From: Candidatus Woesearchaeota archaeon
Lineage (GTDB): Archaea > Nanobdellota > Nanobdellia > Woesearchaeales > JACJVV01
Length of the DNA: 64,000 nt
Assembly: GCA_020637495.1 (NCBI GenBank)
Contig: JACJVV010000001.1
Location: 205,082-269,081, forward strand
Direction: 5' to 3'
Position 1 is the first letter of the stretch. Every line of letters starts with the position of its first letter. The position numbers and the translations under genes were made by a program. The notes under the pieces were generated by a model, which saw only the letters and a program-made list of their open reading frames with translations, did not search any database and was not told the DNA's origin. Shown here one piece after another: positions 1 through 31,329 of the stretch.

Positions 1-1047
1 ACGACAGCAAGATCAGCACCTCTATCATTTAGGATCTTCTTTATCTCCAATGCTGGACTCTCGCGAAGATCACCTACATTCGGCTTGTAGGAGAGACCGA
101 GAAGACAGACTTTTGTGCCTTTAATCTTTTTACCTATTTCAGCCAATGAGTTCTCAAGCTTTTGTACAGTATACTCAGGCATGCTGTTATTGACGTCCCT
201 GGCCATCTGAAGAAATGAATGTTCAAACCCCATATCCCTTGCCTTCTGAATAAGATAGTAAGGATCTACTGGAATGCAATGACCACCTACACCACAGCCT
301 GGGAAATGAGGCATAAAAGCAAATGGCTTGTTCGATGCCGCGTTTATTATCTCGATTATATCAAGACCCATAAGATCAAAAGATTTTGCAAGCTCATTTA
401 CATATGCGATATTGATGTCACGGAATGTGTTCTCAATCACCTTTGATGCTTCAGCAGCTTTCAAGCTAGATACCACATTTATATCAGCATCTATAAAGGA
501 ACTATAGAATTTTTTGGCAAAAGCTGCAGATTCTGAAGAAGAAGCTCCAATATTTCTGGGGATATTATATACATTATATTTCTTGTTTCCAGGATCAATC
601 CTTTCTGGACAATGTGCAACATTGAAATCTTCATTGCACCTCAGTCCTGATCTCTCTAAAGCAGGAATGAGAACTTCATCACATACCCCTGGGTTTACAG
701 TAGATTCAAGTATTATCAATTGTCCTTTTTTCAGGAATGGGAGAATAGAATCTGTCGCACTCTCAATGCAGGATAAATCAGGAAGCTTATTCTCTTTTAT
801 TGGAGTAGGAACAGCTATTATGATCAGGTCAGATGAATCAATCTTGCTGAAGTCCGTAGATGCAGATAGGGATATCTCCTTGATGTCCTTCTCTGCTTGC
901 TTGTCTTCAACTGGGGATTTTTTCTGGTTTATCAGATCAACTTTCTGTTTGCTCAGATCAATCCCTATCACCTCATGTTCTGTCTTTTTTGCGATAGCAC
1001 AAGCTAATGGAAAACCGACATAACCCATCCCTATAATGGATACCTTC
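1..1047 (-). CDS. Nucleotide-sugar dehydrogenase (UDP-glucose/GDP-mannose dehydrogenase family), C-terminally truncated by the window edge
   Basis: Not in the ORF track because it runs off the window. Reverse-complement translation from the ATG at 1045-1047 gives MKVSIIGMGYVGFPLACAIAKK..., a Rossmann NAD-binding N-terminus, then GHCIPVDPYYL and LGLSYKPNVGDLRESPA motifs typical of this family. The + strand ORF 514..1023 is its antisense shadow. Confidence 0.8.
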
Positions 1048-1050
1048 ATT

Positions 1051-2364
1051 TTATCTATATTCATTTTTTATTAAAACTTGTTCATATTTTTTAGCCAAGC
1101 TATCGTAGCTGAACTCTTTTATTTTTGATTTTTTACCATTATATAAAACATTCCCTGTTTTTTTATATTCAGAATATGCTCTTGATAGTATCTTGCTACA
1201 CGTTGATGGATCATTGCAAGAATAACCTGCACCAGTATATTCAAGCAGTTCATGCATGATGTTATCCTTGACGCCACCTGACATGATTATAGGACGACCT
1301 GATGCAAGATATTCAAAGAACTTGCCTGGTATGACCCCTTTCTCTTTGTCATCATCCCAGTCCATCAACATAAGCATCTGGCTTTCTGATTGTTTTTTTA
1401 CAACCTCTTCTTTAGGCATCATACCATACTGCACAACATTTATTTTTAGTGCATCACCCATCTTTGCTATCTTTGGATAAAAAGGTCCGAATAATCTCAG
1501 CCCAATAGGCAGATTGCATCTTGAGATCCCTTCCATGATCATGCTAGGATCCTGCCTGCCCCAGTAAATGCTACCAGTATATGTGATTGTAAAATCTTTA
1601 GTGAGCTTTATTCTTGGTCTTGAGAATTCTTCTTCATCATATCCATTCGTTATAGCATGGATATCTTGGCTGTACCTTATTTTCAGATCGGATGCCCAAT
1701 GTCGTGTTACTGTGACAAGTGCATCAGCTTGCTTCAATGTTCTCTTCTCAAGCATCCGATCAAGATATCGCCTGATCCCATACGGATAATAATGATTATT
1801 TGACCATGGATCGCGAAGATCTGCAACCCATCTGATATCGTGTTTTTCCTTAAGTCTCAAAGCGATAAGGTGAGCAGTCGCTGGAGAGGAGCTGCTTATC
1901 ATGTGATTTATCTTGTACTTCTTTATTATCTTTGAAGCAATATCTATCGCTGGTTTTCTCCAAAAACGTTCCCAATCTGGATAAGCAAAGAAAAAACCTA
2001 AGATCCCATAAAGGAGTTTGAAAAGCTTTCCTTTCAGGACTGCAGCAAATGTAGGAATCAATGTTCTCTTTTCTGTTGAAGATGAATTGATGTTTTTATT
2101 TGAAAGATTTTTCTTTTTCTTGGACTTGCTTCTTAATGAGAATCTCTTAAAAATCTCTAATGGTCTGAAATAATCAACCTCAACTACCTCGATCTTATTC
2201 TTCTTGAAGAATTCTCGAGAGGGGACCTGACCTCTTCCAAAATCATCGCCTATAGTTCCTGTGAGTATTATCGGTCTCCAGCCATTTCGTGCCAAATATT
2301 TTGCAATGCCCGGAATCCTAGGGCATGCATGATACAGGTCTGCAATGATTAGTATAGTTCTCAT
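1051..2364 (-). CDS. Glycosyltransferase family 4 (group 1 GT) with an internal Lys/Ser-rich insert
   Basis: The C-terminal EYLASGRPIIMSGGVKDN...LLEYTGAGYS matches the GT1/GT4 EX7E region. Start is placed at MRTILIIADL, which overlaps the upstream stop as ATGA (2361-2364). Confidence 0.75.
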   Translation of the reverse strand: MRTILIIADLYHACPRIPGIAKYLARNGWRPIILTGTIGDDFGRGQVPSREFFKKNKIEVVEVDYFRPLEIFKRFSLRSKSKKKKNLSNKNINSSSTEKRTLIPTFAAVLKGKLFKLLYGILGFFFAYPDWERFWRKPAIDIASKIIKKYKINHMISSSSPATAHLIALRLKEKHDIRWVADLRDPWSNNHYYPYGIRRYLDRMLEKRTLKQADALVTVTRHWASDLKIRYSQDIHAITNGYDEEEFSRPRIKLTKDFTITYTGSIYWGRQDPSMIMEGISRCNLPIGLRLFGPFYPKIAKMGDALKINVVQYGMMPKEEVVKKQSESQMLMLMDWDDDKEKGVIPGKFFEYLASGRPIIMSGGVKDNIMHELLEYTGAGYSCNDPSTCSKILSRAYSEYKKTGNVLYNGKKSKIKEFSYDSLAKKYEQVLIKNEYR

Positions 2365-3095
2365 CTTGTTGTTATAATTGCTCCGAAACGCTGCCAGTTC
2401 ATGTCTGGCCAATCATCATCCTTTATTTTCTGAATAATAACCTCTCGCTTATATTTCTTAAAAAGTTTCCTGTAATCCCTTACCCAAAGATTATTATGTT
2501 GTTCGCCTTTTGGACCTATATTACTATCCTGCCATTCAAGCAATACTATCCCTTTTTTTGATATACGTAACATCTCACATAATATACTGTCAATCTTATC
2601 AGGTCCTATATATATCAATACAGCGTCGCTAAAGACAACATCAAAACTATTATCCTCGAATCGTTTCATCACATCAGCCTTGCCCACTATAAGGTCAGTA
2701 TTCTTGTCTTCTCTGAATAAATTCCTCCCATGCTGAATAGCTTCAGGATTGATATCTATCCCAGTAAGCTTAACCTTAGGGTATTTTTTCCTGAGAAGAG
2801 ATAAATTAGGCCCACAATTACAGCCGATTTCAAGGACTGAGCCAGGTTTTAACTTTGATATACCATCAATTAATATCTTCCTATGGGGATGCTTGAGTGA
2901 TTTCTCATATCCTTTAATCCAGTCAGATCTCTCTTTCTTATGCCTATTTTCCCATTCATTCTCCCAGGCCGATGTTCCAATGAATATCTGCTTTATCCTG
3001 ACCATACGAGTAGAATAGTATATCCTCTGCAGGAAAGAATAAATTCTTGGGTGCTTCCTTATTTTTTCAAGAATGGTCCCAGATGATCTATTCAT
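2361..3095 (-). CDS. Class I SAM-dependent methyltransferase
   Basis: Motif I VLEIGCNCGPNL, motif II DVVFSDAVLIY. The ATGA start/stop overlap with the upstream aminotransferase indicates translational coupling. Confidence 0.7.
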   Translation of the reverse strand: MNRSSGTILEKIRKHPRIYSFLQRIYYSTRMVRIKQIFIGTSAWENEWENRHKKERSDWIKGYEKSLKHPHRKILIDGISKLKPGSVLEIGCNCGPNLSLLRKKYPKVKLTGIDINPEAIQHGRNLFREDKNTDLIVGKADVMKRFEDNSFDVVFSDAVLIYIGPDKIDSILCEMLRISKKGIVLLEWQDSNIGPKGEQHNNLWVRDYRKLFKKYKREVIIQKIKDDDWPDMNWQRFGAIITTR

Positions 3096-4225
3096 TTGAA
3101 AAAGACCTTGACTTTATCGATCACATAGTCAACTTCTTCATCAGTCATCTCTGGATACATCGGCAAGGATACTACCTCGTTGCTTATTGCAACAGTCTCT
3201 GGAAGATCAAAATGGTCCAGCTTGAGAGGTTTCTGCAGGTGGTTAGGTACGATCCATGAGATCAGATAACCTATGTTATTGCTTTTCAGATATGCTGTGA
3301 ATTCATCACGTCGCTTTGTACGTACAACATAATTCTGATAAACATCAAAATTAGGAGAATCTGAAGGTGCTGGCATAATACCTAGATCAGCTATGTCCTT
3401 AAAGGCATCATCATACTTCTGTGCTATCTCTCTTCTTCTTGATACCCAATCATCAAAGTGCTTGAATTTTGCTGATAGCAATGCTGCATGCAGATTGTCA
3501 AGCCTTGTGCAATAACCATAGCAATTTATCACCTTGACATCATCCACTCGTCCATTATCCCTCAACGCTCGGAGCTTGAATGCCAAAGCATCATCATTGG
3601 TGCAGACAATACCACCATCACCTGCCGTACCAAGCATCTTTGCAGGGTAGAAAGAGAATATGGATGTATCTCCGAATGAACCTGTGTGTTTTCCATTGAA
3701 TTTTGAACCAAGGGCCTGAGCTGCATCCTCTATAACTTTAAGATTATGCTTCTTAGCAAGTTCCATTATCTTGCCCATATCAGCTGCTCTTCCGTTGAGA
3801 TGCACTGGGATTATCCCTTTTGTCTTCGAAGTAATTGCTGCTTCAACCTTTGTCACGTCAATATTATAATCTTTAGCTACGTCAACTAGCACAGGAGTCG
3901 CTCCGCATTGTGCTATAGCACCAATAGTAGCAACAAAAGTATGCCCAACAGTTATTATCTCATCTCCAGGTTTCCAGCCTAGTGCATGCGCTGAGATGTA
4001 GAGTGCATCTGTACCGCTATTCACACCGATTGCATGCTTAACACCTATGTAATCTGCTATCTCCCTCTCAAAATCTTCAAGATGCTTTCGCATGATGAAA
4101 TCACCGTTCGACATTATACCTTCCCATACTGCGTCAAGTTCTGATTTCAATTGTTGATACTGCCTTTTGAAATTCACGAATGGAACTCCTGTTATTTTTT
4201 CACTCTCTATTATCGTGTTCGTCAT
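3092..4225 (-). CDS. DegT/DnrJ/EryC1/StrS-family PLP-dependent sugar aminotransferase
   Basis: FVNFKRQY...GVNSGTDALYISAHALGWKPGDEIITVGHTFVATIGAI...SFYPAKMLGTAGDGGIV are family hallmarks, including the lysine-bearing SFxxxK region. Confidence 0.85.
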   Translation of the reverse strand: MTNTIIESEKITGVPFVNFKRQYQQLKSELDAVWEGIMSNGDFIMRKHLEDFEREIADYIGVKHAIGVNSGTDALYISAHALGWKPGDEIITVGHTFVATIGAIAQCGATPVLVDVAKDYNIDVTKVEAAITSKTKGIIPVHLNGRAADMGKIMELAKKHNLKVIEDAAQALGSKFNGKHTGSFGDTSIFSFYPAKMLGTAGDGGIVCTNDDALAFKLRALRDNGRVDDVKVINCYGYCTRLDNLHAALLSAKFKHFDDWVSRRREIAQKYDDAFKDIADLGIMPAPSDSPNFDVYQNYVVRTKRRDEFTAYLKSNNIGYLISWIVPNHLQKPLKLDHFDLPETVAISNEVVSLPMYPEMTDEEVDYVIDKVKVFFK

Positions 4226-5199
4226 TTTATCATCTCTTGTATCTTTTCTTTAATCTTGTCTGATCTAATATAATATACCTCTTCAAGAACTGAGCTTGCT
4301 GGAGCATGACAATCAGGGAGAGTCAGTCTATGTATAGGCTGTTTAAGATATGAAAATGCCTTTTCAGACGCTATCGCTGATACTTCAGCAGCAACCCCTG
4401 CATGTCTCCATGCTGCATCTACCACAAGCAACTTACCTGTCTTCTTGACGGAGGTGATTATCGCATCTTCATCTATAGGTTTGATCGTACGTAGATCAAT
4501 GATCTCTATATCAATCCCTTTATCTGCTAATTCCTCAGCAGCAACTAACGCTTGCGATACCATATAAGATGTCGCAACAATCGTGAGGTCTTTTCCCTCC
4601 CGTATTATATTTGCTTTTCCTATAGGAACTTCGTACATCTCTTCAGGCACGTCGCCTTTCTCATTGTAAAGCCATCTATCGTCTATATATATCACTGGAT
4701 TATTATCTTTGACACTGGATACCAAAAGCCCTTTCGCATCATATGGTGTGCTAGGCATCACCACTTTTATCCCTGGGATATGCATATACATTGCCTGTGA
4801 TGCCTGTGAATGCTGTGCACCCTGCTCACCACCACGGTTTATTATACTACGTATAGTTACTGGAACATTCGATTTTCCGCCAAACATATAGTTGGCTGCT
4901 GATGCTGAGTTTATTATCTGATCCATGGCAAGATACATGAAATCCATCCTTGGATGCACCATTATAGGGCGCATACCTGCCATCGCTGCGCCTATAGTGA
5001 TTCCTGTGATGCCATTCTCAGAAATTGGAATATCTATGATACGTTCCTCTCCATACTTATCAAAGATTCCTTTCATGCTGTTGCCAACATACCAAGGGCT
5101 CTTTACCCCAATACCCATGACAAATGTATCTGGGGATGATTCTAGCAACTGGTCAAAAGCTTCCTTGATTGCGTCGGCATATGTTATCTCTCTTACCAT
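4222..5199 (-). CDS. Thiamine-diphosphate-dependent 2-oxoacid dehydrogenase E1 component, beta subunit
   Basis: Transketolase-like pyrimidine-binding and C-terminal domains (ITYADAIKEAFDQLL, GIGVKSPWYV...GITGITIGAAMAGMRPI, VVMPSTPYDAKGLL). Confidence 0.8.
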   Translation of the reverse strand: MVREITYADAIKEAFDQLLESSPDTFVMGIGVKSPWYVGNSMKGIFDKYGEERIIDIPISENGITGITIGAAMAGMRPIMVHPRMDFMYLAMDQIINSASAANYMFGGKSNVPVTIRSIINRGGEQGAQHSQASQAMYMHIPGIKVVMPSTPYDAKGLLVSSVKDNNPVIYIDDRWLYNEKGDVPEEMYEVPIGKANIIREGKDLTIVATSYMVSQALVAAEELADKGIDIEIIDLRTIKPIDEDAIITSVKKTGKLLVVDAAWRHAGVAAEVSAIASEKAFSYLKQPIHRLTLPDCHAPASSVLEEVYYIRSDKIKEKIQEMIK

Positions 5200-5245
5200 T
5201 TTTATCTTCGGGCAATGTTAAATTATTCTTTTTTTATCGGCCTTT

Positions 5246-6214
5246 TTAATCAGCATAAATATCATCAAGCAATGTAGCTGGATCAGGTTTGCTGCTTTCT
5301 CTTGCAAACCTGAATGCTTGCTTTACCTCATCATCAACTTCTAACTCAATATCTCTTATCTCAGAATCTAACAACCCTGAAAGTATATCTTTGTTTAGCA
5401 ATGGATCCTTTGCTTTCCATGAATCAATCTCTTGAGCTGTTCTCAAACCTTTATCAATATCAAGCAATGGACCAACATGGCCTTTCCATCTGAAGGTCAT
5501 GCATTCGATGAAAGTAGGGCCTTGGCCATCTCTTGCGCGCTCTGCTGCTTCTTTCACTTTTGAATACACTTCTATCACATCGTTCCCGTCAATCTGAAAG
5601 CTAGGCATGTATGGTTCTGTCTTTAGGTACATATCATCAATGGGTTGTCTTTCTGATAATTTCATATGGGCAGCAGCATTATTATTTTCGCATATCATTA
5701 TTAGTGGGAGTTTCTTGAGTGATGCGAAATTCACTATCTCAGAGAAGACTCCTTCTTCTGTTGCTCCTTCACCAAAAAAAAGCAATGTAACTTTCTTGTC
5801 ATCTCTTAGTTTTGAGGAGAGTGCGACGCCTGCTGCAGGCGCTATCTGTCCTGCAACTATTGCTGTGCTCCCGAACAGATTAACTTCAGGAGAGATAAGG
5901 TGCATCGAACCCCCTCGTCCTTTGCAGCAGCCTGTTGATTTGCAGAATATCTCTGCAACCATTTTCTTTGTGTCTCCACCTTTTGCAATATAATGCCCAT
6001 GACCACGATAGAAAGCAAAAGCATAATCCTCTTTCTCAACAGCACGGCATGCGCCAACTGCTATCGCTTCTTGACCTATATAGAGATGACAAGGAGTCTT
6101 GATCTCTTTATCCTCAGATACGTCAGATATTGCTTCTTCAAACTTCCTTATCCTAAGCATATCCTTGTAAAAAGCAAGGGACTGTTCTTTTGATATCTTT
6201 AGGTTCGTTTTCAT
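5246..6214 (-). CDS. Thiamine-diphosphate-dependent 2-oxoacid dehydrogenase E1 component, alpha subunit
   Basis: YRGHGHYIAKGG and the TPP-binding GDG-N motif FGEGATEEGVFSEIVNFASLKKLPLIMICENN. Confidence 0.8.
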   Translation of the reverse strand: MKTNLKISKEQSLAFYKDMLRIRKFEEAISDVSEDKEIKTPCHLYIGQEAIAVGACRAVEKEDYAFAFYRGHGHYIAKGGDTKKMVAEIFCKSTGCCKGRGGSMHLISPEVNLFGSTAIVAGQIAPAAGVALSSKLRDDKKVTLLFFGEGATEEGVFSEIVNFASLKKLPLIMICENNNAAAHMKLSERQPIDDMYLKTEPYMPSFQIDGNDVIEVYSKVKEAAERARDGQGPTFIECMTFRWKGHVGPLLDIDKGLRTAQEIDSWKAKDPLLNKDILSGLLDSEIRDIELEVDDEVKQAFRFARESSKPDPATLLDDIYAD

Positions 6215-6259
6215 TTCAATTTTTCCAGTAATTCCGATATAATAAATCCTGTGAGAGCA

Positions 6260-7714
6260 TCATAGTTTATTCACTTCACTTGGGTCTTTGAATGTAGGTA
6301 CAATGCCTTTGAGCATGCTGACTAATTCTGATGACTCTAGTTTACCGGTTGTGCATTTTTTTATAAGCTCTTTTGTATGCCCTATGAAATCTGCATGATC
6401 AAAATCTTCATCTTTTGTAACTATGAATATCTTATTGTTTTTTGTAGCATCCGTATGTTCAACTTCTGTCAGAGGCTCTTCATAGAGCTTCTCTCCTGGC
6501 CGAAGACCTACATATCTTATCTCGACATCCTTATCAGGCTCTTTTCCTGAAAGCCTTATCATCCATCTTGCAAGATCCTCTATCTTTATTGGTTCACCCA
6601 TGTCAAGCACGAAGACCTCATCGCCTGTACCCATAACCCAGCATTGGAGTACAAGCTGAGCTGCCTCGTCTATAGTCATGAAATACCTTACTATATCCTT
6701 ATGTGTTATAGTGACATACCCTTGCTGAATCTGTTTCCTGAACGTAGGGATAACGCTTCCATTACTTGCAAGCACATTGCCGAATCGGACTGCCATGAAT
6801 TTTGTCCTCTTACTCTGCTCTTTTGCAACCTGTGAATAATAATGCATCAATTTCTCTGTTACACGTTTTGTCGCGCCCATGACATTTGTTGGATTCACTG
6901 CTTTATCTGAGCTTATCAGTATGAAGCTTTCACAATCATGCTCAAGAGAAAGCTCAAAAAGATTCTTTGTACCAAGTACATTATTCTTTACCGCTTCAAC
7001 AGGATTATGCTCCATGAGAGGCACATGCTTGTATGCAGCTGCATTGAATATTATGTCTGGTTTGGATTCTTGAAAAATCAATCCAATCCTTGCTCTTTCC
7101 TGTATATTTGCAATTACATATTTAACTTTTGTAGTGCATGGTTCCTCAAGGTTTCTGGCTACAGTTGCAAGCCTGTCCTGAAGATAGAATGTCCCATTCT
7201 CCCACCAATCTACTGCGATAAGCTGCTTAGGGTTGAGGCTAAGAAGTTGTGAACATAGTTCGCTGCCGATTGAACCAGCCGCACCAAATACCATGACTGT
7301 CTTCCCTCTTATCTTTGATTTTGCAGGTTCAAAGTCCTGCCGATATATACTTCTTCCCACTAGGTCCTCTACCTGAATCTGACGGACCTGCTCTAAGTTC
7401 ACTACACCATTGACTATCTCTGATATCCTAGGGACAATGTTTATCTTGACTGGTTGATCCCTGCAATTCTGAATTATCTTACGCATCAATGCGCCATTTC
7501 CAGATGGTATTGCTATGAATACTATGCGTATGTCATTCTGGTTTATTATCTCAGGAAGACTATCAACATTGCCTAATATAGGGAGACCGCAATATTCACC
7601 TTTCTTATCATCATCTAAAAAACCTTTTACAGTAATGGATTTTGAATTAGAACTGAGACTCTCTAAAAGTTCTCGGCCTGCTCCTCCTGCTCCTATTATG
7701 AGTGCGTTTTCCAT
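6260..7714 (-). CDS. NDP-sugar 4,6-dehydratase/epimerase of the CapD/PglF/WbpM (polysaccharide biosynthesis protein) family
   Basis: N-terminal Rossmann LIIGAGGAGRELL, a second NAD site VMVFGAAGSIGSELC, YKHVPLME, and FGNVLASNGSVIPTFRKQIQQG. Start is placed at MENALIIG (7714); the track ORF extends 21 codons further upstream. Confidence 0.8.
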   Translation of the reverse strand: MENALIIGAGGAGRELLESLSSNSKSITVKGFLDDDKKGEYCGLPILGNVDSLPEIINQNDIRIVFIAIPSGNGALMRKIIQNCRDQPVKINIVPRISEIVNGVVNLEQVRQIQVEDLVGRSIYRQDFEPAKSKIRGKTVMVFGAAGSIGSELCSQLLSLNPKQLIAVDWWENGTFYLQDRLATVARNLEEPCTTKVKYVIANIQERARIGLIFQESKPDIIFNAAAYKHVPLMEHNPVEAVKNNVLGTKNLFELSLEHDCESFILISSDKAVNPTNVMGATKRVTEKLMHYYSQVAKEQSKRTKFMAVRFGNVLASNGSVIPTFRKQIQQGYVTITHKDIVRYFMTIDEAAQLVLQCWVMGTGDEVFVLDMGEPIKIEDLARWMIRLSGKEPDKDVEIRYVGLRPGEKLYEEPLTEVEHTDATKNNKIFIVTKDEDFDHADFIGHTKELIKKCTTGKLESSELVSMLKGIVPTFKDPSEVNKL

Positions 7715-7865
7715 GAAACCCCCTTTGAAATTGCAACAAAAGTACCTTAAAATTGCAATATAAGTCCAATATAACATGACTAGATAATTGATTTATAAAT
7801 TTTAGTCTTCCAAAGAAGATAAAATTACGCTTAAGGCACTAGGAAATAGAACTAAAAAAGAAAAA

Positions 7866-8333
7866 TCAGTTCCCTGTCGTGAAATAAGGGACACCTAGAT
7901 TCTCATAGACCATCTGTCTTTCTGAAAATAGCGTATGGTATGGTTGCTCACCATAACATTCTCTATAATATCCTTCTGAGTTCATCAGGTCTCTGCTATT
8001 GATACCATCTTTTAATATCACCCTTTTGCATGAGGCACTATTATCCTCGATTTTAGCAAGATGTTTTGAGAGCCTATATACAGTATCATATTTGATCTTG
8101 TCAGAAAGCTTCACATAGCTTCTGGTAGGAGTTCTAGTCTCACCATATGTATTACAATCATCCTGCTCAGCAATCTGAGAAGGAGCATCTGCATCTGAAA
8201 TAGTTTGGTACACCGCCCCAACATGATATAATGATATCTGATTATTAGGGTAATTCTCAATAGCAACTGCTGAAACTGAGAATACAACTAGCATAAAAAA
8301 CATCAAACTAGCAAGTAGAGCATTCTTTTCCAT
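7866..8333 (-). CDS. Small secreted or membrane-anchored hypothetical protein
   Basis: Signal-peptide-like N-terminus MEKNALLASLMFFMLVVFSVSAVA. TATA-like tatataaa lies upstream of the neighbouring + gene, not this one. No family recognised. Confidence 0.4.
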   Translation of the reverse strand: MEKNALLASLMFFMLVVFSVSAVAIENYPNNQISLYHVGAVYQTISDADAPSQIAEQDDCNTYGETRTPTRSYVKLSDKIKYDTVYRLSKHLAKIEDNSASCKRVILKDGINSRDLMNSEGYYRECYGEQPYHTLFSERQMVYENLGVPYFTTGN

Positions 8334-8477: not shown

Positions 8478-9104
8478 ATGGCAAAAAAAGAAGGTAATGA
8501 AGGACAAATAACTGAAAAAAAGAGTGATTCTGAAAGACTTGAAGAAGGACAGATATTGACAAGGATCATATTAGAGATGCTTGGAGGACCAAAAAACCAT
8601 ATAGAGAAGACTATGGTTGATTATGTTGAAAGCATAAAAAACCATGCGGACTATGATATCATCAAAGAATATATCTCAGATAGCAATGAGCAAGAGGATA
8701 AAAAACTATTTTCATTGTATGCAGAGCTTGAGATATGGTTCAAGGATGCCGAAAAACTATTGGCATTCTGTTTTGATAGTCTACCTTCAAGCATAGAGAT
8801 AATCGAACCAGAGGAATTCAAGTTCAAGTCAAATCAATTTGCTGGATTGCTCAATGACCTTCAGGCAAAACTGCATTTCCTTGACATGTCGCTCAAGAAC
8901 CATAAAGCAGACAAGACAGCTGCAGCACATACATTCAAGACACTGACTGAGAATTTCATAGGTTATTGCCTCAAGAATGGAATGAATGACGCAAAGGGAA
9001 TTGCAAAAACAATAGGTATCGCTGAAGACAAGACTATAAAGATGCTGGATGATCTTGCATCAAAGAGCATCATCAAAAAAGATAACAATAAATATTCTTT
9101 GTGA
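8478..9104 (+). CDS. Hypothetical protein in the position where scpA (kleisin) would be expected
   Basis: 208-aa ORF ending 1 nt before the scpB start. No recognisable motif; weak TATA tatataaatg about 25 nt upstream. Confidence 0.4.
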   Translation: MAKKEGNEGQITEKKSDSERLEEGQILTRIILEMLGGPKNHIEKTMVDYVESIKNHADYDIIKEYISDSNEQEDKKLFSLYAELEIWFKDAEKLLAFCFDSLPSSIEIIEPEEFKFKSNQFAGLLNDLQAKLHFLDMSLKNHKADKTAAAHTFKTLTENFIGYCLKNGMNDAKGIAKTIGIAEDKTIKMLDDLASKSIIKKDNNKYSL

Positions 9105-9105
9105 G

Positions 9106-10473
9106 ATGGATGAGATACTAAGAAAAAAGATTGAAGCCATACTTTTCTCTATTGGGAAGAAGATCCATATAGATGAACTCCTCAGAATGATAAAGGAGAA
9201 GGACAAAGCAAAAGTGGTTACTTGTCTTATCGAGCTCAAGCAGAAATACAATGATAGTGAAGAGAATTCACTTATGATCCTACAAGATGGAGATTATTGG
9301 AAACTTACCATCAAAGACCAATATATCGATGTGGCAAAAGAGATAGGCGTAGAGACTGAACTCAGCAAGACTGTCATGGAGACTCTTGCAGTGATCGCCT
9401 ATAAATATCCAATCCTTCAAAGTGACGTGATAAAGATACGGACAAATAAAGCCTATGATCACATGAAGGAACTAGAAGAATTAGGATACATAATGCGAGA
9501 GAGATATGGAAGGACTAAAAGGATAAAATTGACCCAGAAATTCTTCGAATATTTTGATCTTCCACCAGATAAGTTAAGAGAGAAATTCCATAATGTAGAG
9601 GAGATGGAAAAAGTTATCTCAGATAAGGAGAACCAGATACATGAGATAAATGAGAAGAAGAAAGAGCTTATTGAACAACAAGATAGGGAGTCAAAAGCCC
9701 TTGAAGGAAGGAATATCTACATGGAGAACCTAGGGCCGACAGAAGTCATAAGGCATGATGAGAATGGGATAGATGTCATTGAGGGTGAAAAATTAGGCCA
9801 ATTAGAAGTGTTCGAAGAGCTCAATGTTCCAAAGAATGATATTAATACTGAGGAAGAAGAGAGAGAAGAAAAAGAGACACCTAGATTAGAGGTAGTAGAT
9901 GAGGACCAAGTAGGAATAGTAAGGAGTGAAGAAGATGAGGATGTAGAGAAAAAAGAAACATCTGAAGATGATGGAAACGATGAGTCGATCAAATCTGAAG
10001 AGGGTGCCAGTCATGATATTGACACAGAAAATATAGATAATGATCAAGGAAATGAAAATGACATACAGGATGAAGGTACCCCTAATGAGCATGCGAAACC
10101 AGACATATCCAATATTGACGAGAATATGAGTAATCTTGAATCAATCCAGAAAGAGCATGCTGCAAATGAACATGAAGAAGAGATCTCAAAAATACAGGAT
10201 GCAAAAGATAATATGAACTCAGGCAGAGAAATCAACCATGATGAGAATGTAGTGAAGAGTAAAGAGGAAGATAAAGAGGAAGATGTCAAAATCGAAAGCA
10301 GGGACTACAACATCCACAGAAAAAAAGAAGAGCTAGACGAAGATAAGCTTTTCAACATGGAAGGTATCCCAAAGGAGATAATGGATAAGATAGAGGAGAG
10401 AGCTGAAGAGATAGTCCATGGTGATGAGGAGAAAGGATTTGAAGAGCCTTTAGATAAATCTTCTGAAGATTGA
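9106..10473 (+). CDS. scpB: Segregation and condensation protein B (ScpB) homologue with a roughly 250-aa acidic low-complexity C-terminal tail
   Basis: Tandem winged-helix signature of ScpB: ILRKKIEAILFSIGKKIHIDEL and TLAVIAYKYPILQSDVIKIRTNKAYDHMKELEELGYIMRE...KFFEYFDL. The tail after residue 200 is E/D/K-rich. Confidence 0.65.
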   Translation: MDEILRKKIEAILFSIGKKIHIDELLRMIKEKDKAKVVTCLIELKQKYNDSEENSLMILQDGDYWKLTIKDQYIDVAKEIGVETELSKTVMETLAVIAYKYPILQSDVIKIRTNKAYDHMKELEELGYIMRERYGRTKRIKLTQKFFEYFDLPPDKLREKFHNVEEMEKVISDKENQIHEINEKKKELIEQQDRESKALEGRNIYMENLGPTEVIRHDENGIDVIEGEKLGQLEVFEELNVPKNDINTEEEEREEKETPRLEVVDEDQVGIVRSEEDEDVEKKETSEDDGNDESIKSEEGASHDIDTENIDNDQGNENDIQDEGTPNEHAKPDISNIDENMSNLESIQKEHAANEHEEEISKIQDAKDNMNSGREINHDENVVKSKEEDKEEDVKIESRDYNIHRKKEELDEDKLFNMEGIPKEIMDKIEERAEEIVHGDEEKGFEEPLDKSSED

Positions 10474-13427: not shown

Positions 13428-14510
13428 ATGGATAAACTGAAATGCATCGGGTTCTGTGGGTTTGGTGTTGAAGATGTCCTTGAAAATGATATCAGGGAGA
13501 TCCTAGGAAAGAAGGTCAAGGTAGAGAAGAATGAAAGATGTTGCATCTTCGAAGCTAATAAAGAGGATATCGCAAGATTTGCATTCATGTGTCAGAGTAT
13601 AGAAAAAGTAGGAGTTCTGCTCAAAAATGGTGAGATTGGGGACATACCAGAGATAGACGTATCAGACATTAAATTCGACATAAAAACCACTTTCTACGTC
13701 GATTGCAGCATAGCAGGAACGAAACCTTACAAAAGCAATGATGTAGTCATGAACGTATCAGAACAGATGATGAAAACGACAAAGAAGAAGGCAGTCTACA
13801 AAGATGCAGGGATTGAGTACAACATTGAGATCATAGGGAATAAATACTTTTTCACAATAAATCTGAGCTCTAAAGAACTCAGCAATAGGGATTACAAGGT
13901 ATTTGCAAACAAGACCTCGTTAAGAGGAACTATAGCATATGCATTATGCAGGATGGCTGATATAAAAGATGGTGAGAAGGTACTTGATCCATTCTGCAGA
14001 AGCGGTGAGATAGGGATAGAGCTGATACATAATGTAATAGGGAAATCCGTCAATCATTATGCAAAGGATAAGTTCCTCTTCAGCAAGATTGACTGGGAAG
14101 TGAAGCTTGATGATGAGGACAAAGACAGCAAGGTCGAAGTAAACCTTTCAGATGCAGGGATGCCTAATATCAAGGCTGCAGAGAAGAATGCAAAGATTGC
14201 AGGAGTCAATAAGAAACTCAATTTCTCAAGAATATTGATTGAGGATCTTGACCTGAAATATGAGAATATAGATAAAATAATAACAAGGCTCCCTACCCCT
14301 GGAAAAGAGACAAAGGGCAAGATACTGCATATATTCAGGCAATTCTTCGAAGTATCTAAAAAGATTTTAAAACCCAAAGGCATTATCCTATGCATTGGCA
14401 CTAATATTGAGGATGCCATAGATATCGCTAAACATAATGATTATGTATTATTGGAAAAAAAGGAGGTGATGCAAGGAAAGGAAGTAATGAGGGTGTATAA
14501 ATTTGGCTAA
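13428..14510 (+). CDS. THUMP-domain RNA methyltransferase (Trm14/RlmL-like, UPF0020 family)
   Basis: N-terminal THUMP-like region, then LRGTIAYALCRMADIKDGEKVLDPFCRSGEIGIE (motif I of N2-G/N6-A RNA methylases). The expected (D/N)PPY motif appears as RLPTPG, so catalytic status is uncertain. Confidence 0.65.
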   Translation: MDKLKCIGFCGFGVEDVLENDIREILGKKVKVEKNERCCIFEANKEDIARFAFMCQSIEKVGVLLKNGEIGDIPEIDVSDIKFDIKTTFYVDCSIAGTKPYKSNDVVMNVSEQMMKTTKKKAVYKDAGIEYNIEIIGNKYFFTINLSSKELSNRDYKVFANKTSLRGTIAYALCRMADIKDGEKVLDPFCRSGEIGIELIHNVIGKSVNHYAKDKFLFSKIDWEVKLDDEDKDSKVEVNLSDAGMPNIKAAEKNAKIAGVNKKLNFSRILIEDLDLKYENIDKIITRLPTPGKETKGKILHIFRQFFEVSKKILKPKGIILCIGTNIEDAIDIAKHNDYVLLEKKEVMQGKEVMRVYKFG

Positions 14511-16497
14511 GCTAGCATCAATACTAAAGAAAATAAGATATTATCTAACAGAATTCTCAGCTCCATTAATTGCATCAGGGATGATTGCATGGGGCACATC
14601 ACATTTTTTCAATCTTAAACCTGCAAATGAAGGAAAAACTATTCATGAAATGCGTCAGGCTGGAAGGATAATTAATTATTCCAAATGCATTGATGATTTG
14701 TGTGATGAAACGGATGAACATATTCATATATATGAAACAGACCCAATAACAAAAAAAATTACAAAGCTACCTGATTTGATATATACTGGAAAATCTGTAG
14801 CAAAACAAGTAGCTGAAAAAACTGCAAATCCAATCTTGATATTTGGTGGAATAATGCTGCTTTACTCTTACAGGCACAGAAAGAAGAATCCATTCATCCA
14901 AGAGAGAAATATTCTTGAAGATATACAATTATATGCAAGTGATTTAACATATAGCATTCTTGCTATCGGGATGCTGTCTCCTGTTTGGATGCATACTGAT
15001 GGAGAAGTCAAGATAAAACTAATAGTAGGAGGAATAGCTGGAGGAATAGGATATAGTACTAATTATACTATTCCAAGAATGGTCAGAAAAAGAATAAAGT
15101 TAGGATACCAAAATTTAGATTTTATTACTGCACCTATAAAAAAATTATGGTTATTAGATTCATATAAAAAAGGTGTGAGTGATGCAATAAATGAGAATGA
15201 TCTAAATAAAGCAGTTAATGAAGCATATCAACTTTCTAAATCCCGTAGCTATCTCAACGAAAGGGAGAAAAAATATGCACAATCAATCATGATGAAAACC
15301 CACGATATCAGACAAGCAGTTAAATCACTATACAGGCTTTTTTCATCAACTGAAAATAAGCACCTATTAAATTTGATTGATGCAGTTTCAAGTTTCTCTA
15401 TAAATTATCAAGTATATCTAGACATAATGAAAGAGGATATGCCTGATAAAGTTGAATATCAAATTATGAGTTTTGCATTGTGCAGTGATGCCGATAAGAA
15501 AGAACAGATTGCTACAGCTATCTATAGAGATAGGAAAAATAAAGGAAAACTTATCAATGTTTCAAAACAAACAAAAAATAAAGTCTATCTTATGGATTGT
15601 GATAGATTAGGGATGACTTTTGCAATCAAAGAAGCAGATGTTGATGAACTAAACAATGAAGTTAAGCAGACATTAGCAATTGATCATAACAAAATTATCG
15701 AATGTTCTGGTTCTATAGTTAATATTGAAAATCTTGTACTTATGGAAGAATTCAGACAAGAAAATTTAGGGTTATTGTGGTATTCTTTTGTTCAAGGTGT
15801 AAGTGGAAGTGATTATTTACATAGTAATGATCTAGATAGGGGAGTTTCTATTTTAAGGAATATATTGAGATTAAATGGCATTGTTTCAAAATATGGTATT
15901 GATCAAGAGGAAGAAAATATTGAAGGAAAAATAAGAAGAGATATAGATAACAGCATGTTTTCTGAAAGACATAAAGGGATTTTTCATGATTCAGTTGGGT
16001 TCCTGACAAAATATGCACACATATTGCCATTACAGTATGATAGAGATGGAAATCCAGATAACCAAATAATAACAGGGGAAAAGATAACACTTATTGATCT
16101 TGACAAGCGTAAGAAAAGCAATATCGCATACTCTGCTGTAAAGACACTAGAGCAAGATACAGTCTTGCCATATGATGAAAGAGGATGGGAAATAAGAAAT
16201 AGATTAATACCATATTATATTGAATCTGCTGGATTTGAAGGAAAGATGCATGATAGGGAACTTTTATGCAATCATCATACGGCTGTTCCATTGAAAGCTA
16301 TAAGTTATTCAGCTTTTGCTAAAGACAAAGAAGGCAGAATGCAAACAATTCTAAGATTTTGCCAAAGTGCTGAATTTGCGTTAGCTAAAATGCTCCAGGA
16401 TTTCAGGAGCTTTTATTCAGATCAAGAGATAATGCAAGCTCAAGCTGTAAGAGAAGTATTTAAAGAACATTTGGCTGGTTCTCAACAAACTATATAA
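14503..16497 (+). CDS. Large uncharacterised protein, N-terminal multi-pass membrane anchor plus roughly 450-aa soluble domain
   Basis: 664 aa with hydrophobic segments in the first roughly 200 aa (LIASGMIAWGTSHFF, ILIFGGIMLLY, ILAIGMLSPVWM, LIVGGIAGGIGY) and no recognisable motifs. Overlaps the upstream methylase by 8 nt. Confidence 0.5.
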   Translation: MAKLASILKKIRYYLTEFSAPLIASGMIAWGTSHFFNLKPANEGKTIHEMRQAGRIINYSKCIDDLCDETDEHIHIYETDPITKKITKLPDLIYTGKSVAKQVAEKTANPILIFGGIMLLYSYRHRKKNPFIQERNILEDIQLYASDLTYSILAIGMLSPVWMHTDGEVKIKLIVGGIAGGIGYSTNYTIPRMVRKRIKLGYQNLDFITAPIKKLWLLDSYKKGVSDAINENDLNKAVNEAYQLSKSRSYLNEREKKYAQSIMMKTHDIRQAVKSLYRLFSSTENKHLLNLIDAVSSFSINYQVYLDIMKEDMPDKVEYQIMSFALCSDADKKEQIATAIYRDRKNKGKLINVSKQTKNKVYLMDCDRLGMTFAIKEADVDELNNEVKQTLAIDHNKIIECSGSIVNIENLVLMEEFRQENLGLLWYSFVQGVSGSDYLHSNDLDRGVSILRNILRLNGIVSKYGIDQEEENIEGKIRRDIDNSMFSERHKGIFHDSVGFLTKYAHILPLQYDRDGNPDNQIITGEKITLIDLDKRKKSNIAYSAVKTLEQDTVLPYDERGWEIRNRLIPYYIESAGFEGKMHDRELLCNHHTAVPLKAISYSAFAKDKEGRMQTILRFCQSAEFALAKMLQDFRSFYSDQEIMQAQAVREVFKEHLAGSQQTI

Positions 16498-25865: not shown

Positions 25866-26857
25866 TTTTTCGCGTTCTCTTTATGCTCTATATATAATCT
25901 TAAGATTCCTACATTCTGGATCCAGGTGTTTATCTGGTCAACTAGTATTCCTATGAACAATATCACCATAATCTGCCTTATTATATCTGATGAAGTTATC
26001 ATCAAGGCAATAGCAATAGCAACTATTGTTGTCGCATTCATCATGACACCTGTCTTGAATGCAGAATATACCCTGCTGAGCAATGAACCTTCTGAACGTT
26101 TCAACACTCTAGTCGTAAGAAGTATATCAGTGTCAACTGAATAACCTATAAGCATAAGCAATGCTGCAAGGCCTGCTGTTGAGAATTTAATTCCAAGAAG
26201 ATTAGCAATTGCCACTGTTATTGTTATATCTGAGAATGCTGCTAATATTACTGCAATACTTGGAATGAAAGTCCTGAAAGTTATTGATACGATCAGTGCC
26301 ATAAGAATAAATGAACATAATAATGCGATCATTGCTTGATTAAAGAATGACTGGCCAATATTAGCACCTACACCTTCAAGAGAATAATCTTCAAATGTGA
26401 CCTGTGACCTTATTGCTTCTAATAATGAATCTATTGATCCCTGATCATTTAGGTTTATATCTGACTCAATTATTGTCCCTATAGTCCTTCCACCAGATTG
26501 AATATTCCTTATATTGATATTGAAACCATTAGATTGCAGATATTCCTGCAGTGATTCAATATTTATATCGACATTCTCTATTGTTATTGAAATTCCTCCT
26601 TTGAGAGAAATATCTTTTGCGATGAAATCACCAGTAGTTGCCGTTTGAAAACCTATCTGGAATATCGCTAGTAATAGCATTATCAATGGTAAAAGCAGTA
26701 AAAACTTGTAATGATTTACATATGCATTCAAGAAAGGATTCTTTATAGATCTCTGTTTGGGAACATCAGAAACTTCTGTCTGTTCTTTTATACTTGAATC
26801 TTGTGAAAAAGATGATTTTTTCTTGTTCTTAAGTCTCTTCTCTGCGCGTTTAGTCAT
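25862..26857 (-). CDS. secF: Protein-export membrane protein SecF
   Basis: 331 aa with SecF-type 6-TM core (GYSVDTDILLTTRVL). 4-nt overlap with secD. Confidence 0.85.
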   Translation of the reverse strand: MTKRAEKRLKNKKKSSFSQDSSIKEQTEVSDVPKQRSIKNPFLNAYVNHYKFLLLLPLIMLLLAIFQIGFQTATTGDFIAKDISLKGGISITIENVDINIESLQEYLQSNGFNINIRNIQSGGRTIGTIIESDINLNDQGSIDSLLEAIRSQVTFEDYSLEGVGANIGQSFFNQAMIALLCSFILMALIVSITFRTFIPSIAVILAAFSDITITVAIANLLGIKFSTAGLAALLMLIGYSVDTDILLTTRVLKRSEGSLLSRVYSAFKTGVMMNATTIVAIAIALMITSSDIIRQIMVILFIGILVDQINTWIQNVGILRLYIEHKENAKK

Positions 26858-27191
26858 TTTGTAAAGAAAGTATGGCTTCTGCCAAATCTCCGTTTGCGTT
26901 TTCTATTGCTTCCTTAGCCTTTTCCTCATCAACATTTGCCTGATCCATGACAGTCTTAATATCATCATCATTTATTTCGGGCTTAGTATCAAGCGATTGT
27001 TCTACAGGGGTCCCTGTAATCTGGTATGATTCTTGTCCCATCATGTTGACTTTTGCAACTTGTGGATTCGTAAAAACAAGAGCACCATCAGCAGTCTTGA
27101 TTATTACTTCAGTAGCTTCAATATCTACCTGAGAAACGCCCATGCGCTTCATCATTTGCTTCATCTGCCTTGGATTTACTCCTGGAATCAT
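26850..27191 (-). CDS. Nascent polypeptide-associated complex protein (archaeal alpha-NAC)
   Basis: MIPGVNPRQMKQMMKRMGV...EATEVIIKTADGALVFTNPQV NAC domain plus a C-terminal UBA-like DDDIKTVMDQANVDEEKAKEAIENANGDLAEAI. Confidence 0.85.
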   Translation of the reverse strand: MIPGVNPRQMKQMMKRMGVSQVDIEATEVIIKTADGALVFTNPQVAKVNMMGQESYQITGTPVEQSLDTKPEINDDDIKTVMDQANVDEEKAKEAIENANGDLAEAILSLQND

Positions 27192-27266
27192 TTGAATACC
27201 TTAAATATATATATTTTAATTGCTATTTCCAAAAATATATTTGATAACTGATATTTTCAAGGATAA

Positions 27267-27455
27267 CTATCCTAGATTCTGAATCCCCAATGCGCCATAA
27301 CCAAACATGTGAAGAGCTATTATTATCAAAATAACAAGTATTATGATAATTATAACGCTAGCTGGTTTGATGTGGAATTTACTTTTAGATTCATCGAAAT
27401 AACGTGTAATACCTGCGCCTGACATAGGCATATTGATTCTGTTGTCTTTTGCCAT
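27267..27455 (-). CDS. Preprotein translocase subunit Sec61-beta (archaeal SecG)
   Basis: 62 aa; MAKDN...SGAGITRYFDES then a single C-terminal TM, the canonical Sec61-beta architecture. TATA ttttataaaa about 28 nt upstream. Confidence 0.75.
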   Translation of the reverse strand: MAKDNRINMPMSGAGITRYFDESKSKFHIKPASVIIIIILVILIIIALHMFGYGALGIQNLG

Positions 27456-27486
27456 TTTTGTTATAATTGAATGTTGTTTTATAAAA

Positions 27487-27793
27487 TATAGGGAGAGTTA
27501 AGCCACCTTCTGTAGGATGCTTGTAGTGCATAAGCACTGATCATCCTTGCTAGCATTTAACTTAGCCTCATTTGAGTTGCACTGACAGGGGCTCGCCGTT
27601 TCAACTTTCATTGCTTAAGTCTGCTGTTCATTGTTGATGTCGCCATCATTTTACAGCTTTCATCCCGTATAGACAATGAAGTTCGTTTCTGGGCGGTTGC
27701 CTTCCATTTCTGGAACTTATCTTGCAATAAGCAGTCAAACTTAGTGGGTGGACTTTCCTCAGTTTCCCGAAAGCTAACTCATCCCCCTATGGT
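27487..27793 (-). ncRNA. rnpB: RNase P RNA
   Basis: ORF-free, comparatively GC-rich block. Minus-strand reading contains CR-I GAGGAAAGTCC and CR-V ACAGAAGGTGGCTTA. The P4 halves GTCCACC/GGTGGC carry compensatory changes relative to the canonical CCGG. Terminal P1 helix ATAGGGGGATGAGTTA / TAACTCTCCCTAT. TATA TTTATAAATA about 25 nt upstream of the 5' end. Ends approximate to a few nt. Confidence 0.6.
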
Positions 27794-27854
27794 TACGAAG
27801 AAATCAAGACTATTTATAAATGTTATTGATGTGATAAATCAGACATAATGGAGC

Positions 27855-28127
27855 CTAATTCAATCCGAAAGAATCTGTAAATTCTATTATCATCTTATAC
27901 TTATTAAGATATTCAAACCCTTGTGGGGTTATACTATATGTCTTACCTGAAGAAGTATTATTCTCAATTATAAATCCGCTATCCATAAGCTCTTTTAGAT
28001 ATTCGTTCATCATCTTATGAGAAAGGTTGGACTTATACAATATATGAGTTGGCTTTATAGTGCCGTTCTTATTTGATATCGCCTTGAGTATATCATAAAT
28101 GATCTCAAGCCTGTTTCTCTTTCTCAT
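27855..28127 (-). CDS. Winged helix-turn-helix DNA-binding protein (HTH_45-like archaeal regulator)
   Basis: RLEIIYDILKAISNKNGTIKPTHILYKSNLSHKMMNEYLKELMDSGFIIE...YSITPQGFEYL matches the small archaeal wHTH family. Confidence 0.6.
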   Translation of the reverse strand: MRKRNRLEIIYDILKAISNKNGTIKPTHILYKSNLSHKMMNEYLKELMDSGFIIENNTSSGKTYSITPQGFEYLNKYKMIIEFTDSFGLN

Positions 28128-29435: not shown

Positions 29436-29549
29436 CCAATAAATTTAGAGAAATAGGTTTATTAATGTTTTCTGCATAGATGTCCTATGGTAGAAGTAAA
29501 TCATATTATTGAGGAAAAATTTAAAAATGACAGCATTGTATTTTGTTGC

Positions 29550-30342: not shown

Positions 30343-30349
30343 TCCTTTA

Positions 30350-31267: not shown

Positions 31268-31329
31268 GTCATCCCTGAACCAGACAGCATTTAAAAACTT
31301 TTATAAATCCTCAAAGGACTTTAAAATCC

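Follow-up and report, generated by a model that had tools for sequence, protein, structure and literature searches.

Thiamine diphosphate (ThDP)-dependent enzymes can add two-carbon branches to sugars. For the 'alphaKADH2' enzymes, which are built from E1 alpha and E1 beta subunits, an acetyl branch is transferred from pyruvate onto C3 or C4 of keto sugars (PMC12247030). These enzymes take part in the pathways to aldgamycin, kosinostatin, paulomycin, trioxacarcin, avilamycin, everninomicin and kibdelomycin. Some 120 gene clusters of this kind are on record (PMC12247030), and the branch ketone is later reduced, methylated, oxidised or transaminated (PMC12247030; PMC9306805). Here we describe an operon of at least seven genes at the start of a 64,000-nucleotide stretch of Candidatus Woesearchaeota DNA (the window, analysed at its full length), in which an E1 alpha/beta pair lies between the genes for a PglF-like nucleotide diphosphate (NDP)-sugar dehydratase and a DegT-family aminotransferase. 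On balance, this operon probably makes a C-branched, aminated and methylated 6-deoxy-N-acetylhexosamine (HexNAc) for a woesearchaeal surface glycan or N-glycan. The original prediction for this DNA had started from the idea that pairs like AviB1/AviB2 add a two-carbon branch to a keto sugar, and the literature states as much (PMC12247030, PMC4753412, PMC9306805).

The likeness to the alphaKADH2 pairs (AviB1/AviB2 of avilamycin, Pau11/Pau12 of paulomycin, AlmDI/DII of aldgamycin, EvdU5/EvdS3 of everninomicin and KbDH-alpha/beta of kibdelomycin) lies in gene content and in the proposed chemistry. In both cases a two-subunit, PDH-like E1 stands beside an NDP-sugar 4,6-dehydratase, in the window without E2 or E3 nearby, and the reaction proposed for alphaKADH2, in which pyruvate donates an acetyl equivalent to a keto sugar and a tertiary alcohol results (PMC12247030, PMC4753412, PMC10338323), would take place here likewise. 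The coupling of pyruvate to cyclic ketones has been achieved in vitro with KbDH-alpha/beta (Krug et al. 2024, as summarised in PMC12247030), and acetoin:2,6-dichlorophenolindophenol oxidoreductase itself forms tertiary alcohols in vitro (PMC12247030), while the role of AviB1/B2, Pau11/12 and EvdU5/S3 is still termed 'proposed' (PMC4753412, PMC10338323). The amycolose of kibdelomycin bears a 1-aminoethyl branch, the same end result as is proposed for the window (PMC10055692). The two groups differ in host and acceptor. The characterised alphaKADH2 cases concern secondary-metabolite sugars of Gram-positive actinomycetes, whereas the module in the window is found in an archaeon and in many Gram-negative and candidate-phylum bacteria. 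The alphaKADH2 acceptors are mostly dTDP-linked 2,6- or 3,6-dideoxy hexoses branched at C3 or C4 (for eurekanate, UDP-4-keto-xylose is proposed), whereas the acceptor in the window would be a UDP-linked 2-acetamido sugar delivered by a PglF-type enzyme, with the product going to a cell-surface glycan. Also unlike alphaKADH2, bacterial versions of the module are tied to a PglC-like initiating phosphotransferase, once by gene fusion.

A different solution to branching is found in YerE, ErwE and MyGE, enzymes that act in the synthesis of branched lipopolysaccharide sugars, yersiniose and erwiniose among them. As in our proposal, a 2-oxo acid is joined to a 4-keto-deoxy NDP-sugar by ThDP-dependent carboligation, giving C4-branched sugars of surface polysaccharides whose side-chain ketone is then modified (PMC9306805). 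YerE, however, belongs to the acetolactate-synthase/decarboxylase superfamily; it is a flavoprotein of one chain, in contrast to an E1 alpha/beta heterotetramer, and acts on CDP-3,6-dideoxy-4-hexulose. E1-type branching has been associated with Gram-positive antibiotics and the single-chain YerE type with lipopolysaccharide (LPS; PMC4753412, PMC9306805, PMC12247030). The window locus would break this division. In the literature searched, no description was found of an E1-type module acting on a UDP-HexNAc in surface-glycan loci, and a search for acetoin dehydrogenase in O-antigen clusters gave no relevant result.

With the Campylobacter Pgl pathway to di-N-acetylbacillosamine, the locus shares a PglF-type retaining dehydratase and a DegT-family aminotransferase. 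As in the Pgl pathway, the bacterial relatives of the module include a small PglC-like phosphoglycosyltransferase, implying that their product is a reducing-end sugar. Unlike the Campylobacter system, the archaeal version has no PglC and its aminotransferase is not a PglE orthologue; PglD is missing too, and the E1 pair and a methyltransferase stand in its place. Finally, PdhA/PdhB and AcoA/AcoB have the same fold and cofactor motifs as the window E1 pair, which differs from them in having no E2 or E3 nearby, in belonging to a separate clade, in an E1 alpha that falls below equivalog cut-offs and in clade-specific changes adjoining active-site segments.

The operon and its dehydratase

From position 7714 to the window start, the ORF listing and strand reading place seven co-directional genes on the minus strand. 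The genes were assigned by Pfam and NCBIfam profile searches of the translations:

6260..7714, minus strand: PglF/CapD-like UDP-HexNAc 4,6-dehydratase, 484 aa (MCB9358492)
5246..6214, minus strand: ThDP-dependent E1 alpha, 322 aa, PF00676 (MCB9358491)
4222..5199, minus strand: E1 beta, 325 aa, Transket_pyr and Transketolase_C (MCB9358490)
3092..4225, minus strand: DegT-family pyridoxal phosphate (PLP) aminotransferase, 377 aa, PF01041 (MCB9358489)
2361..3095, minus strand: class I S-adenosylmethionine (SAM) methyltransferase, 244 aa, Methyltransf_25/11/31 (MCB9358488)
1051..2364, minus strand: GT-B, GT4-like glycosyltransferase, 437 aa, Glyco_transf_4 (MCB9358487)
1..1049, minus strand: NDP-sugar 6-dehydrogenase, partial, 349 codons, TIGR03026
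7715..7799, minus strand: 5' leader with a putative promoter, by archaeal promoter consensus

At NCBI, a 712,229-bp contig of a Candidatus Woesearchaeota archaeon encodes the consecutive proteins MCB9358487 to MCB9358492, with which six of the translations are identical; this confirms the starts at 7714 and 2364. The gene order and domains read from the sequence by the original prediction are thus borne out by Pfam, NCBIfam and the NCBI proteins, and its archaeal host by the identical Woesearchaeota proteins and by the archaeal replication genes in the window. Because the dehydrogenase gene runs past the window start, with 349 codons inside, the count of seven is a lower bound and the operon may be longer. 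ATGA overlaps join E1 beta to DegT, DegT to the methyltransferase and the methyltransferase to the glycosyltransferase. The original prediction had counted four overlaps among the six junctions, but there are three; the junction between the glycosyltransferase and the dehydrogenase reads TAAaATG, with a 1-nt spacer and the dehydrogenase ATG at 1049. The dehydratase is separated from E1 alpha by 45 nt, and E1 alpha from E1 beta by 46 nt. Ahead of the operon, a TATA-like TTTATAAA is present at 7792-7799 and, with 4 nt between it and the 7714 start codon, a Shine-Dalgarno-like GGGGG run (7719-7723). By consensus, the two elements would fit the promoter and ribosome-binding site of the operon, and this layout appears to favour the start at 7714, as in the NCBI call, over the in-frame ATG at 7777.

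The dehydratase consists of a Polysacc_synt_2 domain (E 4.9e-108) and a CoA_binding_3/PglD_N Rossmann domain in Pfam searches, and is a soluble form without the N-terminal membrane segment. Its best solved relative is PglF/WlaL of C. jejuni (5bjw, 249 bits), against only 130 bits for the inverting FlaA1/PseB (2gn4). In the alignment, ISSDKAV...NVMGATKR provides the S/T-D-K triad and the Met that replaces the Tyr of short-chain dehydrogenases/reductases (SDRs). The enzyme is therefore predicted, from its alignment and relatives, to be a PglF-type retaining UDP-N-acetylglucosamine (UDP-GlcNAc) 4,6-dehydratase, which would supply a 4-keto-6-deoxy acceptor.

The E1 pair and its relatives in sugar loci

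E1 alpha matches PF00676 (E 1.8e-61), and E1 beta matches PF02779 (Transket_pyr, E 1.9e-30) and PF02780 (Transketolase_C, E 3.8e-40). For both subunits the closest solved structures are pyruvate dehydrogenase (PDH) E1 proteins, human and Geobacillus. E1 alpha stays below the cut-offs of both PDH equivalogs (TIGR03182, 305 bits against 393.85; TIGR03181, 191 against 411), and E1 beta passes only the broad PDH E1 beta subfamily model NF006667 (328 bits, cut-off 321).

The relatives of the pair were collected by a one-genome-per-species scan with E1 alpha, from which the best 80 loci were taken, together with loci fetched for single homologues; the ORFs of these loci were clustered, cluster representatives were annotated with Pfam and the annotations were mapped back. 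A search of 5.8 billion proteins returned thousands of E1 alpha relatives at around 50% identity, among them an E1 alpha joined in one chain to a Bac_transf sugar phosphotransferase. The loci sort into three context classes. Class I is the classic complex, E1 alpha-E1 beta-E2 (lipoyl, E3_binding and 2-oxoacid_dh domains), with or without E3. Class II has the order [PglC-like Bac_transf]-E1 alpha-E1 beta-DegT-[methyltransferase and/or class I/II aminotransferase]-PglF, surrounded by glycosyltransferases, flippases and exporters. In class III, the E1 pair lies amid heptose-activation-type (GmhA/HldE-like), SDR, radical-SAM, methyltransferase and zinc-dependent alcohol dehydrogenase genes. About 32 of the best 80 loci are of the sugar type, so that the original prediction overstated how unusual an E1 pair in a sugar cluster is in metagenomic data.

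Neighbour-joining trees of E1 alpha and of E1 beta each divide the pairs into two clades, class I on one side and classes II and III together on the other (hereafter the sugar clade). Inside the sugar clade, the window pair is placed with that of L003, a presumed archaeal locus, and in the E1 beta tree the window protein groups next to class II, the pairs linked to DegT and PglF. Neither E2 nor E3 was found in the 64-kb window or in sugar-clade loci by tblastn with E2 and E3 queries from class I, and none lies within about 10 kb of any sugar-clade E1 pair. Likewise, no lipoyl E2, E3 or related protein was detected by Pfam among the 37 window ORFs scanned (most ORFs of at least 250 aa). The window pair is assigned to the sugar-locus type, and not to stray central-metabolism genes, because its clade is found only in sugar loci, apart from the E2-followed pairs. 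Against the alternative named by the original prediction, a central-metabolism pairing linked to E2 and E3, stands the position of the E2-followed pairs, which form a separate clade in both trees. All the computational checks that might have refuted the original prediction turned out to favour it.

E1 beta keeps the catalytic Glu (PISEN) and His (QHSQ). Three of its basic residues, H82, R84 and R122, are fixed in the sugar clade and are F, F and I in E2-linked pairs; they adjoin the segments that carry the ThDP-stacking Phe and the catalytic His, and may bind the nucleotide diphosphate. The ThDP motif of E1 alpha reads FFGEGAT...ENNN, with Glu at the usual Asp position. The possibility that this GEG motif inactivates E1 alpha was rejected, as the same variant occurs in seven E2-linked and three sugar-clade pairs; the motif is likely functional.

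What is conserved around the sugar-clade pairs? The core of PglF and E1 alpha/beta recurs in two archaeal-style contigs and in many bacterial phyla, the PglF-E1 association being kept in L003, L006, L012, L015, L027-29, L037, L076 and L089-92. In L003, the order is STT3/AglB, GT4, PglF, E1 alpha, E1 beta, DegT and methyltransferase, and its core from PglF to the methyltransferase is the same as that in the window, at 52-64% identity. L091 has GT4-PglF-E1 alpha-E1 beta-DegT, and L089 has PglF-E1 alpha-E1 beta-methyltransferase (methyltransferase at 3772-4554), with no aminotransferase called on the stretch examined. L090 reads methyltransferase-PglC-aldo-keto reductase-E1 alpha-E1 beta-PglF, where a methylglyoxal-reductase-like aldo-keto reductase (7040-7984) takes the DegT position. 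L092 has PglC-E1 alpha-E1 beta-DegT-(methyltransferase)-PglF. The order in L006 is the same, with the PglC-like domain fused to E1 alpha: this 555-aa Bac_transf::E1 alpha protein (P0112, in L006-L008) is followed by E1 beta-DegT-methyltransferase-PglF and by Wzc/Wza-like export genes. The fusion ties the E1 pair to glycan initiation.

Where contigs are long enough to show it, PglF with E1 alpha/beta is the most constant pairing. The neighbour that acts on ketones varies between an aminotransferase, a reductase and none, and a methyltransferase is usual. These variants would point to a family of branched sugars whose side chains carry a keto, hydroxy or amino group, and the variable ketone-acting neighbour matches the rule described in the literature for alphaKADH2 sugars (PMC12247030, PMC9306805). 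In bacterial class II loci, DegT directly follows E1 beta, and no homologue of the window dehydrogenase was found within about 10 kb, WbpB-like oxidoreductases not having been queried.

About half of the bacterial class II modules carry an extra class I/II (aspartate/methionine-type) aminotransferase, for example L037 (13069-14247), L015, L019, L027, L029 and L034; it could supply the 2-oxo acid donor or an amino donor.

Class III is represented by L017, L018, L020, L023-25, L030, L031, L035, L044, L045 and L077, with genes for GmhA-like SIS proteins, HldE-like kinase/adenylyltransferases, SDR dehydratases, radical-SAM and B12-radical-SAM enzymes, methyltransferases and zinc-dependent alcohol dehydrogenases. 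This context suggests C-branched heptoses or related sugars as possible products. A tblastn search of plasmids with E1 beta found no AviB-type sequence; it matched two other pairs. L093, on plasmid pDMC1 of the cultured Solidesulfovibrio magneticus RS-1 (26336-33320), is a class III-like cluster with radical SAM, kinase, SDR, DegT and nucleotidyltransferase genes. L094, on pSGRIFU1 of Streptomyces griseofuscus (137096-139142), has an E1 pair at 43-44% identity beside a non-ribosomal peptide synthetase condensation-domain protein, acyl carrier proteins and ketosynthases; no sugar genes were found alongside, and the pair is another non-complex use of the E1 fold.

A predicted route to a C4-branched sugar

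The enzymes that would act after branching are DegT, the methyltransferase and the glycosyltransferase. DegT matches PF01041 (E 2.9e-108) and has the PLP lysine in FSFYPAKML. Its closest solved structures are 7b0d (327 bits) and QdtB (278 bits), then DesV and WbpE, the latter at about 230 bits, against 116-119 bits for PglE (1o61, 4ztc) and 126 bits for PseC. By these scores, the enzyme is not a PglE orthologue and appears far from the C4 aminotransferases PglE and PseC, which fits a model in which C4 is blocked by the branch. In a DegT tree, the E1-adjacent DegTs, that of the window included, are monophyletic, with the WbpE-like DegT of L090 outside; judged from this tree, the subfamily travels and co-evolves with the E1 pair. 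The methyltransferase weakly matches the pseudaminic-acid-associated methylase TIGR03587 (68.8 bits, cut-off 112) and has an orthologue of 52% identity in the same position in L003. For the GT4-like enzyme only an N-terminal GT4 domain is detected (E 1.8e-10); a homologue lies beside PglF-E1 alpha/beta-methyltransferase in L089 (full-length, 34% identity, E 1e-72), and the enzyme is a candidate for transfer of the modified sugar. The dehydrogenase, which lies outside the conserved core of the module, has the N-terminal and central domains and the start of the C-terminal domain of the UDPG_MGDP_dh family (TIGR03026, 385 bits); among equivalog models it comes closest to UDP-ManNAc dehydrogenase and TviB but reaches no cut-off, and its probable product is a HexNAc uronic acid destined for the same glycan. 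No hexapeptide PglD-type acetyltransferase was found in the operon by Pfam, and the sole Hexapep domain among the 37 scanned window ORFs belongs to a GlmU-like protein (60044-61234).

Gene content and order, domains, the sugar-locus clade, the local absence of E2 and E3 and the conserved synteny are observed, and on these a route can be drawn. UDP-GlcNAc would come from a GlmS/GlmM/GlmU-like operon elsewhere in the window, and the PglF-like enzyme would convert it to UDP-2-acetamido-2,6-dideoxy-4-hexulose. An E1 alpha2beta2 tetramer, acting alone without E2 or E3, would decarboxylate pyruvate on ThDP, and the resulting hydroxyethyl-ThDP carbanion would attack the C4 ketone to form a tertiary alcohol with an acetyl branch at C4. 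The translationally coupled DegT would then turn the branch ketone into a 1-aminoethyl group, as in the amycolose of kibdelomycin, and the methyltransferase would act on the product at N or O. The GT4-like enzyme would transfer the modified sugar, and the dehydrogenase would yield a uronic acid partner sugar. In this scheme we infer pyruvate as the donor, C4 as the acceptor, the order of the steps and the sites of amination and methylation. As the best reading of the locus, the C-branched methylated amino-sugar put forward by the original prediction is supported, since synteny, clade and DegT subfamily agree, the product itself being deduced.

It is possible that this chemistry extends well beyond the window, although we put this forward more tentatively. 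DPANN archaea and many uncultured Gram-negative and candidate-phylum bacteria may build an undescribed class of C4-branched 2-acetamido-6-deoxy sugars by a dedicated module of PglF, E1 alpha/beta and tailoring enzymes, the product often being the reducing-end sugar of surface glycans or N-glycans. Such sugars would be, for example, a 4-C-(1-aminoethyl) sugar, its N-methyl form, and variants with a reduced or unmodified acetyl group.

Several points weigh against the proposed C4-branched amino-sugar. The link to the characterised alphaKADH2 enzymes is one of family, context and literature, and the trees are neighbour-joining trees without support values. E1 alpha has Glu and not the usual Asp in its ThDP motif, a variant shared with E2-linked pairs. 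Among the nearest solved relatives of DegT are C3 aminotransferases and WbpE. The DegT family is known chiefly for its action on ring ketones, and the model has to assume that an exocyclic methyl ketone is aminated. With a WbpA-like dehydrogenase in the operon, a separate role for DegT is conceivable. To our knowledge, no glycan with such a C-branched sugar is known from these organisms.

How else could the operon be understood? The E1 pair might be a sugar carboligase that uses another 2-oxo acid donor, such as hydroxypyruvate or 2-oxobutyrate. Or DegT might act on a ring carbon and not on the branch, and no 4-C-(1-aminoethyl) sugar would then form. A special 2-oxo acid could be made by the extra class I/II aminotransferase that roughly half of the bacterial class II modules carry, YerE-like enzymes have a wide donor range (PMC9306805), and the best solved relatives of the window DegT are C3-type aminotransferases. 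Yet alphaKADH2 enzymes seem specialised for C2 branches, and KbDH takes only pyruvate (PMC12247030). Neither a 3,4-ketoisomerase nor an extra aminotransferase was found in the window by Pfam, and after branching at C4 the only ketone left is the branch carbonyl; we regard this variant as unlikely. Less probable again is a split of the operon in two, in which DegT, the WbpA-like dehydrogenase and genes past the window edge make a 3-amino uronic acid by a WbpA/B/E-like route while PglF, E1 and the methyltransferase form a separate branching pathway. WbpE is among the solved relatives of DegT (about 230 bits), the operon is cut just at the dehydrogenase, L089 keeps PglF-E1 alpha-E1 beta-methyltransferase without DegT, and L090 has a full WbpA/B/D/E-like set beside its E1 module, with a DegT 44% identical to that of the window. 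However, it is this WbpE-like DegT that falls outside the clade of E1-adjacent DegTs. The overlap of the window DegT start with the E1 beta stop and the bacterial class II loci, in which DegT directly follows E1 beta and no dehydrogenase homologue was found within about 10 kb in a search without WbpB-like queries, also speak for a function shared with the E1 pair.

Alternatively, the E1 pair could replace PglD: PglF and DegT would make a 4-amino sugar that E1 N-acylates from pyruvate without acetyl-CoA. The module does resemble PglF/PglE/PglC with E1 alpha/beta where PglD is missing, and acetyl-CoA metabolism is limited in DPANN archaea (general knowledge; see PMC5994134). This is nevertheless very improbable. 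L089 and L090 keep PglF and E1 without an aminotransferase in the E1-adjacent module, the only DegT of L090 sitting in the separate WbpA/B/D/E-like set, and PglD replacement was rejected on these two modules. DegT is not PglE-like, and the conversion of hydroxyethyl-ThDP to acetyl-ThDP needs an oxidant, with no flavin or lipoyl partner encoded nearby. No case is known to us in which a ThDP enzyme N-acetylates a sugar. Just as improbable is an ordinary catabolic pyruvate or acetoin dehydrogenase E1 whose E2 and E3 are encoded elsewhere in the genome, even though E1 beta passes the NCBIfam PDH E1 beta cut-off, the closest solved structures are PDH E1 subunits and some Woesearchaeota are reported to have a 'pyruvate dehydrogenase' (PMC5994134, PMC8421398). 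E1 alpha is below both PDH equivalog cut-offs, the clade of the window pair is never E2-followed in the loci examined, neither E2 nor E3 was found in the 64 kb of the window, and E1 beta is coupled by ATGA to DegT. Moreover, the synteny with PglF and DegT is kept from archaea to many bacterial phyla and includes the fusion to a sugar phosphotransferase. What is seen in L089 and L090, in the trees and in the synteny is at odds with both the PglD substitute and the catabolic E1.

If the proposed C4 branching holds, a new type of monosaccharide would be present in archaeal and bacterial surface glycans, with four or five enzymes named for its synthesis in vitro, and ThDP-dependent C-branching of sugars would be described for the first time in Archaea. 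The view that branching of the E1 type is confined to actinomycete antibiotics, with LPS relying on the YerE type, would no longer hold. While E1 branching is known for actinomycete antibiotic sugars, its use on UDP-HexNAc in surface-glycan loci would be new. The E1 clade, which is large and phylogenetically broad, probably accepts UDP-sugars, and would enlarge the short list of ThDP enzymes known to form chiral tertiary alcohols, enzymes that are sought in biocatalysis (PMC12247030). The proposal also bears on genome annotation. In metabolic reconstructions, some lineages of Woesearchaeota use 'pyruvate dehydrogenase' to make acetyl-CoA (PMC5994134, PMC8421398). An E1 alpha/beta pair in a reduced DPANN or candidate phyla radiation (CPR) genome can be misread in this way; E1-only pairs within glycan operons should be left out when pyruvate oxidation is scored, and if published PDH calls in Woesearchaeota rest on E1 alpha/beta alone, pairs like that in the window would be false positives. 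Surface glycans probably matter for how DPANN cells attach to their hosts.

Other features of the window

A second minus-strand operon (59454-63992) encodes a haloacid dehalogenase (HAD) hydrolase, a GlmU-like protein (NTP_transferase and Hexapep), a GlmM-like phosphoglucosamine mutase and a GlmS-like protein with two SIS domains, which is cut by the window end. It is presumed to supply UDP-GlcNAc as the precursor for the PglF-like enzyme. Just upstream of the E1 operon, a 155-aa ORF (7866-8333, minus strand) has a hydrophobic, signal-like N-terminus and no Pfam match; the encoded protein may be secreted or sit on the cell surface, and might itself be glycosylated.

The remaining window carries archaeal housekeeping genes, including GyrA, ScpB, GatA/B, SecD/F, FEN1, PheRS, MCM, PolD DP1/DP2 and Cdc6. 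Beside cdc6/orc1 (53278-54492) and PolD DP1/DP2, the intergenic stretch 54500-54950 is extremely AT-rich and belongs to a low-GC stretch at 54-58 kb (GC 0.27-0.30). A replication origin is probable here; the repeats seen were all of low complexity, and clear origin recognition boxes were not found. No tRNAs were found in the window. Five ORFs of 208-664 aa have no Pfam family at E<=1e-5 (14503-16497, 32543-33538, 41039-41956, 57132-58010 and 8478-9104). Finally, the ScpB homologue (9049-10473, plus strand) has a highly acidic, low-complexity C-terminal extension of about 300 aa.

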